NCBI GenBank assembly: GCA_963754875.1
Contig: CAVWHO010000008.1
Location: forward strand, 32,001-96,000
Origin: Nitrospirota bacterium
Lineage (GTDB): Bacteria; Nitrospirota; UBA9217
Reading direction: 5' to 3'
Length of the DNA stretch: 64,000 bases
Below, in pieces: positions 1,170-9,049 of this stretch. A program made the position numbers and the translations under genes. Under the pieces are notes generated by a model. The model was not told the DNA's origin. It ran no database searches and saw nothing but the letters and a program-made list of their open reading frames with translations. Each line of letters opens with the position of its first letter. Positions within the stretch are counted from its first letter, which is position 1.

Positions 1170-3169
1170 GTAGGGTCGAGGACAGGCGCGCCGGTTTAGG
1201 TTGATGTTTGTGTTCTCTGTTGTCTTGCCCTTTCGTTTGCAAGTGCCACAATATTTCAACCATTCCACGTTTCCAGTCCCCGCCACATCAAACACAGCAT
1301 GCGGGTTTCCCGCACTATGCTTTCCTTTTGGCTTCACCTCAAGGGTTATGTTGCCTATTTGCTGGCAGCGCTTTCGAGTCCATAGTACCTCACCTGGTAA
1401 TCGGCATAAAGCCCAAGGTTCTTGTACAACCAGACTCTACTCCACCTGTTCCAGCCAAAGCCCTTACATTTTCGGGCTCTCATAAGATGTCGCCGTATCT
1501 TTTTCTCTACCCAATCCTTGATGTAATGAAGGCACCTGCTGGAGTGACCTATCCGAAAGTAGTTAACCCAGCCGCGAAGCTTCGAGTTAATCAGCTCGAT
1601 CACACGGTGTACTGGCTGCGACACAAATCGCTGAAAGACCTCCTTGAGATTTCTTAGGAGATTTGTCCGCGCTTTCATTCGTGGTGTGATGAGGACTCCC
1701 CATTTCTTGCTCCGCGTCCTGACCCTCCGTATATCAAATCCCAGAAAGCTAAAGCTCTCTCCTTTCATCAGGTCTGCCAGACGGGTCTTTTCTTCATTGA
1801 TGCATACATCAAGTTTTGCCAACTCTTCAAGGAGTCGCCGATATGCTCTCTCTAATAACCAGTCCCAGCGCCGATACGCGTCTACTAGAATGACGAGGTC
1901 ATCTGCAAAACGGGCATACTCTATATAGGTATAGCCTGTCTTGCTCGTTGCCTCCTTCGCCCGCTCAAGCATCTTGTCTACCTCATTAAGATAGACATTT
2001 GCCATGAGAGGCGAGATAACCCCTCCCTGCGGTACGCCGCGCTTGCCACTGGCTTTTAGCATGAGGCTGAGCAGCCGCAGCACTCTGTCATCATCGACCC
2101 TTTTAGCTACTTTATCCAGCAATATGTCATGCCGAACAGTATCGAAGTACGCCTTAAGGTCAACATCGATGACTCGTGTCTTATTATGGACAACTGCTCT
2201 TGCAACCCGGTGCACCGCCTGATGTGCTGTCCGTTTCGGGCGATACCCGTATGACCCTTCTTGGAAGTCGGCTTCAAAAATCGGCTCAAGAATAAGTTTG
2301 AGCGCACCCTGCACTACTCGGTCTCGAATGGCCGGGATTCCCAAGATGCGCACTTTCCCATTGCCCTTGGGTATCTCTTTCCTTCGGTTCCACATAGGCA
2401 GGTACATCCCTGAGAGTAGTTCATTTCGTATGCTGTCGAGGAACTCTTCCAGACCGTTTTCTTCAATGGCCTCAAACGTGACGCCATCAATTCCCGGCGC
2501 CCCGTTATTTCGTTTAGCCATGTAGTAGGCAAGCCTGATTGTCTCGGTCTTGCACACGTGAATGTACAACCCCCAAAAACGATGTTGCTTATCGGCTTTC
2601 GCCTTGACGTAGATCCTCCGTCTCAGGTCATGCAGATTAATAGATGTCTTCGTCATCCCATCCCTGCCTTCCAATGTTGCTGGAGGACTGTCAAAAGTAG
2701 GGCCTCTTGGCTCCACAGGCATTACCCTGCTTCATCGCTACTGCCGCCCATCCGCCACCCTTCCGCCTTCAGTCCATTTCCCAGTATCTCTGGTTATAGA
2801 ACCTACCTTTCTCCAGCGATTTCTCGTTGGGGCGATGAGGGCTTCTCCAGTTGCTCGGTGTGTCCTTGCTGCCATGCCGCCGTTATCACCCCGCTGAAGT
2901 GGAGTAACCGTTTCAGTCAGTTTTCGATTATCCATGCTGCCTTCACTCTACGGTTGAGAGCTCGGCCTTCAGGGCTTCGATCTTTCGGGGCCACCTCTAC
3001 GTTCGCTTTCGCTGCGGCCTGGCAACTCGTTGTCATCCTTTAGATGATTGTGTTGATGGGCTTCAGGATGTCGGTTTCCCTCTACCCTGCCATCCTAACT
3101 ACATGGCCTCTAACTCTTGCCAAGGCAGGACTAGCTCCTGCTGAACACACCAGCCTTCGCTGGACGCAC
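1170..3169 (-). mobile_element. Group II intron, apparently full length (~2.0 kb)
   Basis: 5' end GTGCG at 3169. Domain V-like GAAAGCATAGTGCGGGAAACCCGCATGCTGTGTTTGAT at ~1287-1326. 3' end ...CTCGACCCTAC at 1170. Internal RT/maturase ORF. EBS1 loop AACCGT (2950-2955) is complementary to the last 6 nt of the 5' exon. Confidence 0.92.
1355..2656 (-). CDS. ltrA: Group II intron reverse transcriptase/maturase, no C-terminal HNH endonuclease
   Basis: GAPGIDG, RILGIPAIRDRVVQ, SYGYRP, DVDLKAYFDTV, PQGGVISP, YARFADD, FLGF and maturase LRGWVNYF. Likely start is MTKTSINL at 2656. Confidence 0.96.
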   Translation of the reverse strand: MTKTSINLHDLRRRIYVKAKADKQHRFWGLYIHVCKTETIRLAYYMAKRNNGAPGIDGVTFEAIEENGLEEFLDSIRNELLSGMYLPMWNRRKEIPKGNGKVRILGIPAIRDRVVQGALKLILEPIFEADFQEGSYGYRPKRTAHQAVHRVARAVVHNKTRVIDVDLKAYFDTVRHDILLDKVAKRVDDDRVLRLLSLMLKASGKRGVPQGGVISPLMANVYLNEVDKMLERAKEATSKTGYTYIEYARFADDLVILVDAYRRWDWLLERAYRRLLEELAKLDVCINEEKTRLADLMKGESFSFLGFDIRRVRTRSKKWGVLITPRMKARTNLLRNLKEVFQRFVSQPVHRVIELINSKLRGWVNYFRIGHSSRCLHYIKDWVEKKIRRHLMRARKCKGFGWNRWSRVWLYKNLGLYADYQVRYYGLESAASK

Positions 3170-4779: not shown

Positions 4780-5385
4780 TTAGTTATAAGCGGATTTGTC
4801 GCCGATATCGTTGGCGATAGGCATGAATACTTTTCGCAGCGTAAAGATGACAAGCATGACGGCGATCAGGATAAGGCCATAAGACGCGCCTCGTCCCGTA
4901 AGACTGTTGTTCGAAACCAGCAGCAGGTAGATCGGCATGATCATGGCAAGAAGATAGCCCTCGAAGAGCTTGAAGCAGAATGCTTCCTTCGCGGTCACGA
5001 GCCCCAGGCATCCGGAAAGCGGGAGCAGGAGCAGCGGGGTGTAAGATCCATGGACCAGCACGCCCGCAAGGGACCCCTTGCCGAGGTAAAGCAGCACGAC
5101 AAGACAGACAAGGCTGAGGTAGTACAAATTTTTCAGAAATCCCTTGATCTTGCCGATATAAAGATGAATGAAGAACACGCTCATGCCAACGGACGCATAA
5201 AGACCATAGATAAGGATATCTGCTGACCGGTCCATGAGCATCGTTTCGGTAGTTGAAGATGCCGTCGCCAGCAAAAACGCCAGACCGGCAATGAGAATTG
5301 CGGATATCACGATACCGACACGGTAGAGCGCAACCGTTATTTTATCTTCTCTGGTAAGGGGCTGGAATACCTGCGTAGAACCCAT
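4780..5385 (-). CDS. DUF2301-like integral membrane protein
   Basis: Several TM segments; KEAFCF and C-terminal DIGDKSAY motifs. Confidence 0.75.
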   Translation of the reverse strand: MGSTQVFQPLTREDKITVALYRVGIVISAILIAGLAFLLATASSTTETMLMDRSADILIYGLYASVGMSVFFIHLYIGKIKGFLKNLYYLSLVCLVVLLYLGKGSLAGVLVHGSYTPLLLLPLSGCLGLVTAKEAFCFKLFEGYLLAMIMPIYLLLVSNNSLTGRGASYGLILIAVMLVIFTLRKVFMPIANDIGDKSAYN

Positions 5386-5453
5386 TGATCATTTTCTCCA
5401 TTCAGAACTTTTTCTTCGACTTCCCGTTTGGAAGTCGCAACGCGATACCGAGG

Positions 5454-5645
5454 TCACCCTTTTCTCACTTTTTTCCAGAAAGCCAGGTCGCTCATCATGA
5501 GCCCCAGAAGTTCACGGGGCGTCATTTCCGAGGTTTCCTTACACCTACAGGCATCGTCATTAACTGCACCCGTTTGCTTTTCTGCCGTTGTTCTCTCTTT
5601 CCCCGGACGGCCCGGATCATCGGTTTTGTGGTAACGGGTAATCAT
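5454..5645 (-). CDS. Small hypothetical protein (63 aa)
   Basis: GAGGAG RBS before the ATG; co-oriented with the DUF2301 gene. Confidence 0.5.
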   Translation of the reverse strand: MITRYHKTDDPGRPGKERTTAEKQTGAVNDDACRCKETSEMTPRELLGLMMSDLAFWKKVRKG

Positions 5646-5702
5646 TCTGTGCTCCTCTGCTCTTATTCTACATCATCTGAGAAAAATATGCCACCTGACA
5701 TC

Positions 5703-5731
5703 TTGACATGGACCATTGCAGCCATTATTAT
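5703..5731 (+). promoter_or_regulatory. Sigma70-type promoter for the YkuD-Mur ligase fusion
   Basis: TTGACA (5703-5708), 17 bp, TATTAT (5726-5731). Confidence 0.65.
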
Positions 5732-5785
5732 GTTGTTGGTAGTAACGTTACTCTACTCTGCAATAATGAAAGCAGCGTCTCTTTT

Positions 5786-7696
5786 ATGGAAACAGCTCGA
5801 TTACGTAGTATTTACCAAAAAATACGCAAGTCCTTAAACGACCCGAGAGATCCTTTTCTCGTGGTGTCCATTGAAACACAAACGCTCCTCGTCTGCAAGA
5901 ACGACGCTATTGTGGAGCGGTATAACGCATCGACCTCCCGTTTCGGCAACGGCAACCGGGAGAACTCGCTCAAAACACCGCTCGGTGTTCACCGGATCAG
6001 GGAGAAGTTCGGAAGCGACGCGCCGGCGGGACGCATTTTCCGTGACCGCGAGGACACGGGCGAAGACTGGGACCACAGCAAGACAGGAGACAATCTGATC
6101 CTGACCCGCATTCTGAGGCTCGAAGGTCTTGAGGAAGGGATCAATAAGGGCGAGGGAGTAGATTCCTATGAGCGCTACATCTATATCCACGGCACCGGCC
6201 GGGAGGACCTGATCGGCACTCCCCTGTCGCACGGATGCGTGTGCCTGCGCAATCACGACATCGTTCGTTTGTATGAATTGGTCACCGAAGGCACACTCGT
6301 GTACATCGATCCTCCAGCCATTGTCATCAACGAACGCCGATGCCGCAGCATCCATTTTACGGGCATTTTCGGCAGCGGCATGAGCGCGCTCGCACAATAC
6401 CTGCGCTTTCAGGGGATAATAGTCTCGGGTTCAGATCGTTTCCATGCAAGTGCGGATACCGCCTCCGTCCGGCGATCGCTTGAAGGGCTCGGGTGTGGCA
6501 TCGTCCCTCAGGACGGTTCAGGTGTCACTGGTGATACTGACGTCGTCTGCGTCTCGACCGCAATCGAAGACTCGAATCCCGACATCGCTGCCGGCCGCAG
6601 CCGCGGGATTCCTATCATCCATCGCTCCGATCTGCTGAGCGCCCTCATCGCCGCAAAAAGAACAATAGCAGTCGCCGGCACAAGCGGTAAATCGACGGTG
6701 ACAGCGATGATCTTTGAATTTCTGACCGCTTGCGGGAAATCGCCCTCCCTCATAAGCGGTGCTGCCCTGCGCAGACTCGAAAAGCAGGGGCTTATCGGCA
6801 ATGCCTATAGCGGCGGGTCCGATCTCCTTGTGGTCGAGGCGGACGAAAGCGATGGAACGCTGGTCAAATATTATCCCCAGGCCGCGGTCATTCTGAATGT
6901 GTCCAAGGACCACAAGACCACTGAGGAGATAGCAAAACTCTTCGAAATACTGGCGGCACAATCTCCCTGGACGGTTTCCAATGCCGACGATCCAATCCTT
7001 GCTTCCCTTCCCGCGACCGTGCGCTTCGGCCGAAACGGTTCGTCCTCGTGGCGGCCGGACCGGGAAGAACTCCTGCCGGCTTCAGTGAAGCTTTTCAAAA
7101 ACAGCACTGAATATCATCTGCCGCTGCCGGGTGAACACAATCTGGAAAACCTGCGCGCTGCGATTTGCGTGTGCGAGCATTTCGGCTGCGAGCAAACAGC
7201 GCTTGCCGAAGCGGTAAAAAAATACGAGGGTGTGGCCCGGCGTTTTTCCGTGACCACGACAAGGCAGAACGTGCACGTGGTCGACGACTTTGCCCATAAT
7301 CCGGCAAAGATAGCCGCCGTTATTCGCGCTGCGCGGGGCCTTTCCAGCCGCGTCATTGCCGTGTACCAGCCGCACGGGTTCGGTCCGACACGGTTCTTAA
7401 AGGAAGAATACATCGCGACGTTCCGGACTGGCTTCCTCCCGAATGATTCCCTGTATCTTTTGCCGATCTATTATGCCGGGGGCACGGCGCAAAAAAATAT
7501 TTCCTCGGACGATATCATAGGTGGTCTTGGTCCCGTACCCTTCAATGCACAAGCGCTCAACGATCGCGATGAGTTGTTGCTCCGATTAAAAGCCGATGCA
7601 AAACCGGGAGACTGCGTTCTTGTCATGGGCGCGCGGGACCCGTCGCTGCCGGCGCTTGTAAAAAAGGTTGTGGAGCTGTTGGGCGGAGAAAGCTGA
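5786..7696 (+). CDS. Fusion: YkuD (ElsL-like L,D-peptidase) domain + MurC/Mpl-like Mur ligase
   Basis: N-terminal TPLGVH...RYIYIHGT...SHGCVCL (YkuD His/Cys motif). C-terminal IHFTGIFGSGMSALA, AVAGTSGKSTVT, VEADESDG, DDFAHNP, YQPH. One continuous frame; likely start METARL. Confidence 0.88.
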   Translation: METARLRSIYQKIRKSLNDPRDPFLVVSIETQTLLVCKNDAIVERYNASTSRFGNGNRENSLKTPLGVHRIREKFGSDAPAGRIFRDREDTGEDWDHSKTGDNLILTRILRLEGLEEGINKGEGVDSYERYIYIHGTGREDLIGTPLSHGCVCLRNHDIVRLYELVTEGTLVYIDPPAIVINERRCRSIHFTGIFGSGMSALAQYLRFQGIIVSGSDRFHASADTASVRRSLEGLGCGIVPQDGSGVTGDTDVVCVSTAIEDSNPDIAAGRSRGIPIIHRSDLLSALIAAKRTIAVAGTSGKSTVTAMIFEFLTACGKSPSLISGAALRRLEKQGLIGNAYSGGSDLLVVEADESDGTLVKYYPQAAVILNVSKDHKTTEEIAKLFEILAAQSPWTVSNADDPILASLPATVRFGRNGSSSWRPDREELLPASVKLFKNSTEYHLPLPGEHNLENLRAAICVCEHFGCEQTALAEAVKKYEGVARRFSVTTTRQNVHVVDDFAHNPAKIAAVIRAARGLSSRVIAVYQPHGFGPTRFLKEEYIATFRTGFLPNDSLYLLPIYYAGGTAQKNISSDDIIGGLGPVPFNAQALNDRDELLLRLKADAKPGDCVLVMGARDPSLPALVKKVVELLGGES

Positions 7697-8002
7697 GCGT
7701 CCTGAAGAATTGCCGCGGAAAGCATCAGTGACCTGCACGCAATGAATTTTCACTACTTTCGTTTTATCGATTGTCTCGGATGCACCCGCCGACAACATTG
7801 ATTCGTGAATAAAAAATTTCCTTCTTGCCGGGAAAGCGGCTTCGCGCCGTTGCTTCACTCAATCTCCGCCCATTCAGCAATGAGTCCAAAGTATTTCATT
7901 GGTTTGTCAATCATCCGGTAGAATTTTGGATTTCGCAGAAAGATTATGCTAGAGTTTACCTAACAGTGCATTGTTTGTTTCGTCATCGAAGGAACCATTG
8001 CT

Positions 8003-9049
8003 ATGGACGACGTGACCCAAAGAACGATCGAAGTGATCAATAACGCAGCGGGGGAACAAAATCCCCCTGGCCCCTGCGAAGTGGGCGCTGCAGAGAAATC
8101 CGATGTCGAACTGCTGGATGCCTACTCCCGGGCGGTCATAACCGTGGTAGAGGCTGTCGGTCCTGCTGTCGTGAGCATCTCAACCGGGACGAGGTCGAAG
8201 AACGCTGAGCCCGAGACGGGCGGGGCCGGATCCGGGGTCATCATCGCGCCGGACGGCTATGTTCTGACGAACGATCATGTCGTGCACGGTTCGAAATCGC
8301 TGGCCGTGTCGCTGACGAACGGAACGACGCTCGCGGCAGTCATCGTGGGCACGGATCCTGCTTCCGATCTTGCCGTAATCCGCGCCGATTCCTCGAACCT
8401 GCCGTTCGCAACTCTCGGTGAATCCGCATCACTTCGAGTCGGGCAACTCGTGATCGCCATCGGCAATCCTTTCGGCTTCCAGTCCACCGTATCAACCGGC
8501 GTCGTAAGCGCTCTCGGCAGGGCGCTTCGGAGCAGGGAAGGACGGCCCATCGAAAACATCATCCAGCATACCGCCCCGCTGAATCCAGGCAATTCGGGAG
8601 GCCCGCTGGTGGATTCGCGCGGCAGGATTGTGGGACTGAATACGGCAATCATCATGGGTGCACAGGGAATCGGCTTCTCCATCCCTTCGGATACTGCAAA
8701 ATGGGTCGTTTCCCAGCTCCTCACCCTCGGCAGGGTGCGCCGGGGATATTTAGGCATTGCCGCGCAGCAACGACCGCTCAACCGGAGGACGGCGCGCTAT
8801 TTCAATCTGACGCTGACGTCTGTCGTGGAAGTCCTCTCGGTGACGCGAGGCGGCCCGGCCGCACAGGCTGGAATGAGGAAAGGCGACCTTATCGTGGCCA
8901 TGAACGGGACCGATATCACGACGGTGGACCTGCTCCAGAAATTTCTTTCAGACTGGCCCATCGGCAAACCGGTCAACGTGTCCGTGCTCCGTGTGCAGGA
9001 ACGTCTGGAGGTTGAGGTTACACCATCCGAGGCCGGGGCGCACGAATGA
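8003..9049 (+). CDS. HtrA/DegP-family trypsin-like serine protease with one PDZ domain
   Basis: GSGVII, LTNDHVV, DLAVIR, NPGNSGGPL, GYLGI PDZ; no obvious signal peptide. Confidence 0.92.
   Translation: MDDVTQRTIEVINNAAGEQNPPGPCEVGAAEKSDVELLDAYSRAVITVVEAVGPAVVSISTGTRSKNAEPETGGAGSGVIIAPDGYVLTNDHVVHGSKSLAVSLTNGTTLAAVIVGTDPASDLAVIRADSSNLPFATLGESASLRVGQLVIAIGNPFGFQSTVSTGVVSALGRALRSREGRPIENIIQHTAPLNPGNSGGPLVDSRGRIVGLNTAIIMGAQGIGFSIPSDTAKWVVSQLLTLGRVRRGYLGIAAQQRPLNRRTARYFNLTLTSVVEVLSVTRGGPAAQAGMRKGDLIVAMNGTDITTVDLLQKFLSDWPIGKPVNVSVLRVQERLEVEVTPSEAGAHE

Follow-up and report, generated by a model that had tools for sequence, protein, structure and literature searches.

Recycling of the cell-wall peptide as a whole is known from Proteobacteria, where it rests on the ligase Mpl together with a trimming enzyme, either LdcA or ElsL. 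LdcA is a serine peptidase, and the YkuD proteins are cysteine enzymes. ElsL of Acinetobacter baumannii is a cytoplasmic L,D-carboxypeptidase of the YkuD family that converts the disaccharide-tetrapeptide to the tripeptide and leaves the pentapeptide untouched, and the C138S variant, changed at the YkuD catalytic cysteine, was reported to be inactive (PMC8649774). The orthologue search of that report kept stand-alone proteins of 105-200 amino acids (aa) and discarded those of more than 200 aa; therefore, fusion proteins could not appear in it. Bacteria without Mpl have been described as not re-using the peptide whole. Here, we analyzed a gene at positions 5786..7696 (+) of a 64,000-nt window of contig CAVWHO010000008.1 (contig C8 of the genome) from a Nitrospirota bacterium; coordinates without a contig or locus name are positions in this window. 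The gene encodes an ElsL-like YkuD domain fused to a complete three-domain Mur ligase, and comparison with related sequences argues that this single cytoplasmic protein probably trims the tetrapeptide to the tripeptide and re-ligates it to UDP-MurNAc (UDP-N-acetylmuramic acid), which is the work that Mpl does together with ElsL or LdcA. Such coupling had been proposed in the first-pass annotation of this DNA, which knew of no characterised example; comparative genomics supported the proposal, and our literature search found no paper on a YkuD-ligase fusion or on the ligase clade, here called HGxP, to which its second half belongs.

Architecture of the fusion protein

The Pfam scan of the protein detected a YkuD domain and the three domains of a Mur ligase in a single frame, as first annotated, all four over their cut-offs, and no other domain, peptidoglycan-binding domains included. 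The YkuD domain spans residues 24-174 (5855..6307, +; E-value 3.9e-21, 76.6 bits, cut-off 23.4), and the translation contains the motifs KTPLGVH, LILTRILRLEGLEEGINKGEGVDSYERYIYIHGT and SHGC. His135 of the YIHGT motif (6188..6190, +) lies where YkuD enzymes have their catalytic histidine, and Cys151 (6236-6238) of the SHGC motif (6227..6238, +) where they have the catalytic cysteine; both motif positions were invariant in 23/23 aligned relatives. The resemblance of these motifs to ElsL, noted in the first-pass annotation, was borne out by the NCBIfam ElsL model NF040925, which matched with 136.7 bits over nearly its whole length (model positions 8-159 of 164), though under its cut-off of 270 bits. 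Two fused relatives, P0122 and P0124, scored 121.2 and 115.4 bits with the same model, and the other YkuD-type NCBIfam models gave no more than 26 bits for the YkuD half. Within the genome that carries the window (4.3 Mb, 22 contigs, 90% complete), this domain was the sole ElsL-like match at an E-value of 1e-15 or below.

The domain had been described as having no signal peptide, and the simple hydropathy scale that we used for this judgement, which is not SignalP, agreed: the Kyte-Doolittle mean over 19 residues peaked at 1.16 in the whole protein and at 1.13 in its first 70 residues, versus 2.26 in L009, a different YkuD protein from this genome that has a lipobox-like N-terminus. By hydropathy and Pfam, the fusion protein thus has no signal peptide, transmembrane helix or peptidoglycan-binding domain, and its YkuD domain is joined to an ATP-dependent cytoplasmic ligase. 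The YkuD half is a below-cut-off relative of ElsL and, judged by its sequence, is predicted to be cytoplasmic. It shares with ElsL the YkuD fold, the positions of the catalytic histidine and cysteine, the lack of both a signal peptide and a peptidoglycan-binding domain, and the predicted reaction from tetrapeptide to tripeptide. The two differ in that ElsL stands alone, at about 165 aa, and works with a separate Mpl, whereas the YkuD domain described here is part of a 636-aa protein, is paired with an HGxP ligase, scores below the NF040925 cut-off, and carries the motif SHGCVCLRN, which differs from that of ElsL. When the whole structure model was compared with known structures by Foldseek, the listed rows were almost all Mur ligases, with no YkuD structure among the matches listed.

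A linker of residues 175-188, DPPAIVINERRCRS (6308..6349, +), connects the halves and is the point at which the YkuD gene of split relatives stops and their ligase gene begins. When shorter proteins were searched for, many YkuD proteins turned up that stand alone (172-180 aa, 54-66% identity) and, where a source is named, derive from Chitinivibrionales, Chitinispirillaceae, Fibrobacter and Syntrophorhabdales; they stop exactly at the start of the linker. The ligase consists of an N-terminal, nucleotide-sugar domain (Pfam Mur_ligase, residues 189-292, 6350..6661, +), which holds the clade-specific residues R218, D243 and E261, a middle, ATP domain (Mur_ligase_M, residues 296-463, 6671..7174, +) and a C-terminal, third-substrate domain (Mur_ligase_C, residues 485-617, 7238..7636, +). 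The P-loop GTSGKST lies at 6677-6697 (+), and E351, E354 and H376 of the middle domain are shared with MurC and Mpl. For the whole chain, the AlphaFold2 model made from an 85-row alignment had a predicted local distance difference test score (pLDDT) of 93.3 and a predicted template-modelling score (pTM) of 0.90, and the linker was confidently modelled, with a pLDDT of about 94-96. Collectively, the catalytic motifs are intact in both halves, and both halves look active from their sequences.

The fusion junction is real. A check in reads against a stop or an indel at this place had been suggested at the outset, and metagenome contigs that belong to relatives (90-97% alike; three public runs, two studies) spanned positions 6300-6345 free of gaps (X1, 6095-6762; X2, 6104-6417; X3, 6170-6530). 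A single X1 contig, 132 nt long, skips 72 nt at the junction (6267 to 6340); this was dismissed as noise because the shorter side of the skip has just 21 letters. Moreover, all four Pfam domains were present in each of the 120 best matches listed (81-100% identity). In a phylum sample of 201 genomes, 45 of which, own genome included, form the family of the window's organism, 39 of the 45 carry the full-length fusion; contig ends split one further copy, and another is truncated. The ESM Atlas holds three clusters of the fused architecture, with 115, 57 and 74 members, and no functional lead came from them. One genome of the family (G200) has, at C12:303665-304408 and about 17 kb from its full-length copy, a second, partial copy with a 261-aa open frame that covers residues 329-576 at 81% identity; this is possibly a pseudogene remnant.

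Placement of the ligase half

Next, the ligase was compared with the two families to which the first-pass annotation had likened it. It scored 284.9 bits with the NCBIfam MurC model TIGR01082 (cut-off 335.1) and 97.3 bits with the Mpl model TIGR01081 (cut-off 388.7), and all eight clade members scanned, this ligase among them, stayed under the MurC equivalog cut-off (281.9-331.5 bits). The genome has a canonical MurC at C5:37473-38804, which scored 576.4 bits, over the cut-off, and is neighboured by other Mur ligase matches at C5:41569-46435. Since these lie on C5 and the fusion on C8, the gene is outside any division and cell wall (dcw) cluster, as had been stated. No Mpl over the cut-off was detected in the own genome, where the best TIGR01081 match was the canonical MurC itself, at 212.7 bits.

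An exhaustive search of 1.84 billion representatives returned, among the 150 best matches, three more fused clusters (61%, 47% and 44% identity), and the remainder were proteins of about 450 aa with 34-58% identity, plus some shorter fragments. After eight fragments under 420 aa were dropped, the ligases were aligned in 182 rows, which comprised 7 fused proteins, 14 unfused Nitrospirota paralogues, 139 representatives, 18 canonical MurC, 3 Mpl and MurD of E. coli. The L-Ala site of Haemophilus influenzae MurC (HiMurC) is formed by Y346, H348, H376, R377 and R380, according to PMC3060825, and a HMMER alignment to the structures 1gqq and 1p3d showed the corresponding residues of the fusion ligase to be F, H, H, G and P. 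The DDFAHNP motif (7283..7303, +; DDYGHHP in MurC) accounts for the change of Y346 to F and the retention of H348, with H349 replaced by N, and the HGFGP motif, the clade signature at residues 530-534 (7373..7387, +), retains H376 and replaces R377 by G and R380 by P. These replacements are clade-wide, with G in 158/159 filled clade rows at position 377 and P in 157/159 at position 380, versus arginine at both in 18/18 MurC rows and EPRS in 3/3 Mpl rows.

Further differences were found when the 160 clade rows were set against the 18 MurC rows. The clade has R at HiMurC I50 in 160/160 rows and D at H70 in 138/160, E261 of its N-terminal domain is invariant, the glutamate of the MurC AGE motif is replaced by G in 159/160, and a glycine of the MurC GAGD motif by R in 159/160. 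Arg617 of the MGARD motif (7634..7636, +) is arginine in 159/160 clade rows and glycine in 18/18 MurC rows. The P-loop lysine K302 and E351, E354, H376, N452, N455 and R485/R486 (fusion numbering) are kept in the clade, MurC and Mpl alike. We named the clade, which has no other name, HGxP after its motif; its signatures DD[FY]AHNP, QPHG[FY]xP, SGSDR, YYAGG and MGARD are all present in the fusion ligase, and a profile of the clade (A2) gave HGxP members 485-606 bits versus at most 367 bits for canonical MurC.

MurC and Mpl formed one clade both in the FastTree analysis of the 182 rows (support 99) and in a quick IQ-TREE search under LG+G4 with 71 selected rows (Shimodaira-Hasegawa-like approximate likelihood-ratio test, SH-aLRT, 100), and Mpl was monophyletic within it (SH-aLRT 100, 11 rows), with HGxP outside both. 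From these sequence comparisons, the ligase is best placed as neither MurC nor Mpl, within a large third branch outside the MurC+Mpl clade. The label "MurC/Mpl-like" therefore stood in so far as this is a complete Mur ligase related to both, and fell in so far as trees and cut-offs make it a member of neither family. MurC (TIGR01082; H. influenzae 1p3d) is its best match in sequence and fold: the Foldseek template-modelling score, normalised by target length, was 0.85-0.86 with closed HiMurC complexes and 0.68 with Mpl (3hn7), and the sequence match in the PDB was 172 bits for MurC versus 54 bits for Mpl. The ATP and magnesium residues are the same as in MurC; the fusion is unlike it in the replaced residues, its location, its score and its place in the trees.

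Mpl, represented by the E. coli and Psychrobacter arcticus proteins and PDB 3hn7 (described in PMC3060825), resembles HGxP in being a three-domain Mur ligase with the same catalytic residues, in lacking the MurC arginine pair, in occurring besides MurC and outside the dcw cluster, and in the predicted reaction, which would join a peptide to UDP-MurNAc. It differs in having EPRS (the E-P-R-S-N-T region of that source) where HGxP has QPHGFGP, and it is a weaker fold match than MurC. The bifunctional MurC-Ddl fusion (NF011171) likewise joins a MurC-type ligase naturally to another stem-peptide enzyme, but its partner is a C-terminal D-Ala-D-Ala ligase of de novo synthesis, and our fusion gave this model 173.5 bits (cut-off 1015), with the ligase part alone covered. 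Source databases label the relatives "UDP-N-acetylmuramate--alanine ligase", "Mur ligase family protein" or "L,D-transpeptidase family protein", by similarity only. Frankia "MurC2" (PMC7231273) and the predicted cyanobacterial Mpl Synpcc7942_1362 (PMC7464499) are possible clade members.

Linkage across lineages and genomic context

To classify the architecture across lineages, one genome per species was scanned with the YkuD alignment, and the best 80 of at least 599 loci were classified. The YkuD domain was fused to an HGxP ligase in 16 of these, lay directly upstream of one on the same strand in 7, and stood alone in 57; Mpl was found beside the YkuD relative in 0/80. The fused loci come from nine Nitrospirota, two records titled "delta proteobacterium", Syntrophaceae, Syntrophorhabdus, Holophaga foetida DSM 6591, an alphaproteobacterial metagenome-assembled genome (MAG) and a Fibrobacteraceae MAG, and the adjacent ones, by record title, from three Fibrobacterota, Chitinispirillum, Eisenbacteria and two Krumholzibacteriia. 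In the adjacent pairs, there is an overlap of a few bases between the YkuD stop and candidate start codons of the ligase. The fused or overlapping pair thus accounts for 23 of the 80 loci and is spread over seven or more lineage labels.

All 16 YkuD-linked ligases in the tree fell, with four representatives, into a single clade (SH-aLRT 96). It comprises two starred sub-clades with fused and adjacent forms mixed in each, so fusion or fission has taken place several times, and the starred branches require at least three changes of the fused label. The window's ligase grouped with the fusions of Syntrophorhabdus, Syntrophaceae and "delta proteobacterium" (70-75% identity over the whole protein) and not with the unfused Nitrospirota paralogues, and this pattern of sequences suggests that the fused gene may have been transferred horizontally between phyla, or that MAG contigs were mis-binned.

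In the 80 genomes behind these loci, HGxP was present in 24, namely the 23 with the linked pair and one verrucomicrobial MAG, in which the ligase lies on a differently numbered contig from the record of the ElsL-like gene. A canonical MurC match was also found in 23 of the 24. Mpl over the cut-off was detected in 0/24 HGxP genomes versus 36/56 of the others, and eight more of these 56 had an Mpl near the cut-off or as a fragment at a contig end. The Fisher p-value of this exclusion, 1e-8, is overstated, as relatedness makes the genomes depend on one another. Mpl occurred in 2/201 genomes of the phylum sample, which share a family and lack HGxP; in the sets tested, no genome had both ligases. 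In each of the two Mpl genomes, LdcA (Peptidase_S66) follows on the strand of Mpl, about 45-85 nt downstream (G171:C27:267209-269022 and G108:C43:208190-210003). By analogy, this adjacency is a comparable pair of trimming enzyme and ligase assembled from unrelated parts: the two predicted steps and their order are equal to those of the fusion, but there are no orthologues, the ligase clade differs, and the fusion holds both putative activities in one polypeptide.

Among other recycling genes, an AmpG-like permease was detected in the own genome with a full-length match of 180.8 bits, under the cut-off, and in 32/41 genomes of the family. A GH3 NagZ-like gene and three further YkuD genes were also present, and no LdcA (Peptidase_S66) was found in the own genome at its 90% completeness. 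A single weak, partial match to AnmK (27 bits) within a 1418-aa frame was not accepted as AnmK.

Regarding the gene itself, the window's open reading frame listing gives a single frame at 5708..7696 (+) of 662 aa. Frame, translation, Pfam and homologues support the 636-aa coding sequence from the ATG at 5786, stop codon included in the coordinates, and the majority of homologues in the best-match list are 636-640 aa long. A promoter-like site, TTGACA-17-TATTAT (5703..5731, +), matches the consensus at 11 of 12 positions and predicts a transcript start near 5738-5740, upstream of this ATG; the site overlaps the ATG at 5708, and therefore the start at 5786 is favoured. Of the sigma70 promoter claimed initially, the match to the consensus stood; it is a match by consensus only, and the scan of 5300-8100 gave four sites of such quality versus 1.5 ± 1.4 in shuffled sequence. 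Divergent from the fusion gene and separated from it by 400 bp is a gene for a DUF2301 integral membrane protein (4780..5385, -), assigned by neighbour and domain search, and homologues of this gene (63-77% identity) adjoin the fusion gene in 9/30 other loci searched, from about seven genomes. Farther away, a 455-aa frame at 1355-2722 (-) with RVT_1 and GIIM (group II intron maturase) domains likely encodes a group II intron protein.

An unfused HGxP ligase was found in 23 other Nitrospirota genomes, 14 by motif and 9 by score alone. An ATG22-like transporter of the major facilitator superfamily, with no match to AmpG or any other NCBIfam model at an E-value of 1e-10 or below, adjoins it in 3 of the 14 loci (L034:3656-4963, L037:3584-4804 and L045:3708-4967), and NamZ, LysA/DapF and a SPOR protein were each seen near 1 of the 14. 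In another family of the phylum, five genomes (G013, G090, G114, G172 and G150) gave three query matches, the third MurC-like, where others have two. Elsewhere, a LOG-family gene and lepA are syntenic with the YkuD-ligase pair in Fibrobacterota only, and in the alphaproteobacterial MAG a 1069-aa Scaffold + YkuD protein of the large L,D-transpeptidase type adjoins the fusion gene (L118:7880-11086, -).

Proposed function and its alternatives

In the function proposed here, the YkuD domain would remove the terminal D-Ala of L-Ala-gamma-D-Glu-mDAP-D-Ala (mDAP, meso-diaminopimelate), as ElsL and LdcA do, the HGxP ligase would use ATP to attach the tripeptide to UDP-MurNAc, as Mpl does, and MurF would afterwards add D-Ala-D-Ala. 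The coupling would keep the tetrapeptide out of the precursors. Ligation might instead precede trimming, which would then act on UDP-MurNAc-tetrapeptide, and the net result would be equal. The Mpl-like role that had been suggested for the ligase clade gained support from the loss of the L-Ala arginines, the recurrent YkuD pairing and the exclusion of Mpl in the 80 genomes, and is best worded as a predicted role. More tentatively, and with somewhat less than balanced confidence, we suggest that HGxP ligases could be the missing murein-peptide ligase of many phyla without Mpl, and that, where they are joined to an ElsL-type domain or overlap it, they might form a self-proofreading salvage enzyme that releases no toxic intermediate and is fed by a new supply route without AmpD.

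Several observations weigh against trimming and re-ligation by this protein. No AmpD-type amidase (Amidase_2) was found in the own genome, which is 90% complete, and Amidase_2 occurred in only 3/41 genomes of the family; the release of the peptide from anhydro-MurNAc is unaccounted for. The 23 Nitrospirota genomes with unfused HGxP gave no ElsL-like and no LdcA match, so the ligase family can be independent of a known L,D-carboxypeptidase, and no consistent partner was found among the neighbours of the 14 unfused ligases. Similarly, no recurring recycling gene was detected around the pair, fused or adjacent, in 13 loci whose records are not titled Nitrospirota, and 12 of the 56 genomes without HGxP have an ElsL-like protein but neither ligase. 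In the ligase itself, sequence and fold are nearer to MurC than to Mpl, H348, H376 and an aromatic residue at 346 are kept as in MurC, and the fused rows retain the arginine at the HiMurC R382 position, where 107/139 representatives have R or K; therefore, a carboxylate could still bind in another register. Finally, the clade changes I50 to R and H70 to D, both at uracil-contact positions of MurC, and by these residues it may use a different nucleotide-sugar substrate.

Some of these points would fit a second MurC-type isozyme, with a separate or regulatory role for the YkuD domain. MurC is the top family and structure match, all catalytic residues are kept along with H348 and H376, Arg or Lys is frequent at the R382 position, and some genomes have an unfused member but no known L,D-carboxypeptidase. 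We nonetheless regard an isozyme as unlikely, because all eight members scanned fell under the MurC equivalog cut-off, both L-Ala-binding arginines are replaced throughout the clade, and a canonical MurC stands besides HGxP in 23 of 24 genomes, in the dcw cluster in the case of the own genome; moreover, an isozyme leaves both the repeated pairing with an ElsL-like domain and the exclusion of Mpl unexplained. The absent AmpD, which weakens the classical salvage route, would suit a different idea, namely that the protein edits precursors: the YkuD domain would be a cytoplasmic transpeptidase or exchange enzyme that replaces the last residue of a UDP-MurNAc-peptide, or a proof-reader of tetrapeptide precursors made by the ligase, and a modified stem peptide would result. 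A compact and confident model (pTM 0.90) fits a hand-over between two sites, and the chemistry of YkuD proteins is that of transpeptidases, with carboxypeptidase activity in some only, as PMC8649774 states. The same paper describes ElsL, the closest characterised relative, as a hydrolytic carboxypeptidase on tetrapeptides and not pentapeptides; since, in addition, no acceptor-supplying gene is linked and the exclusion of Mpl points to the job of Mpl, we consider editing quite unlikely.

The substitutions in the N-terminal domain bear on yet another explanation, in which the ligase acts on a different acceptor or pathway, such as another nucleotide-sugar or a polymer other than peptidoglycan, and its link to YkuD reflects that pathway. 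R218 and D243 occupy the uracil-contact positions of MurC, E261 is invariant, and the family is large, has no studied member and is named by similarity only. The glycine-rich loop, D217 (HiMurC D49, a diphosphate contact) and I/V260 (HiMurC I87) are kept, however, the predicted fold superposes on closed MurC-ligand complexes, and the family of the partner domain acts on peptidoglycan stem peptides, all of which makes such a pathway very unlikely. Trimming and re-ligation of the peptide is thus the function that we retain.

If this is true, a large, widespread and unnamed branch of Mur ligases, now labelled MurC or "L,D-transpeptidase family protein", would acquire a function, and the routine but mistaken annotation of its genes as a second MurC could be put right. 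Nitrospirota, Fibrobacterota, Acidobacteriota and others would join the bacteria with peptide salvage, and the protein would be a natural one-protein illustration of why trimming must be tied to re-ligation. The fusion is carried by a cultured strain, Holophaga foetida DSM 6591, in which the question is directly testable.

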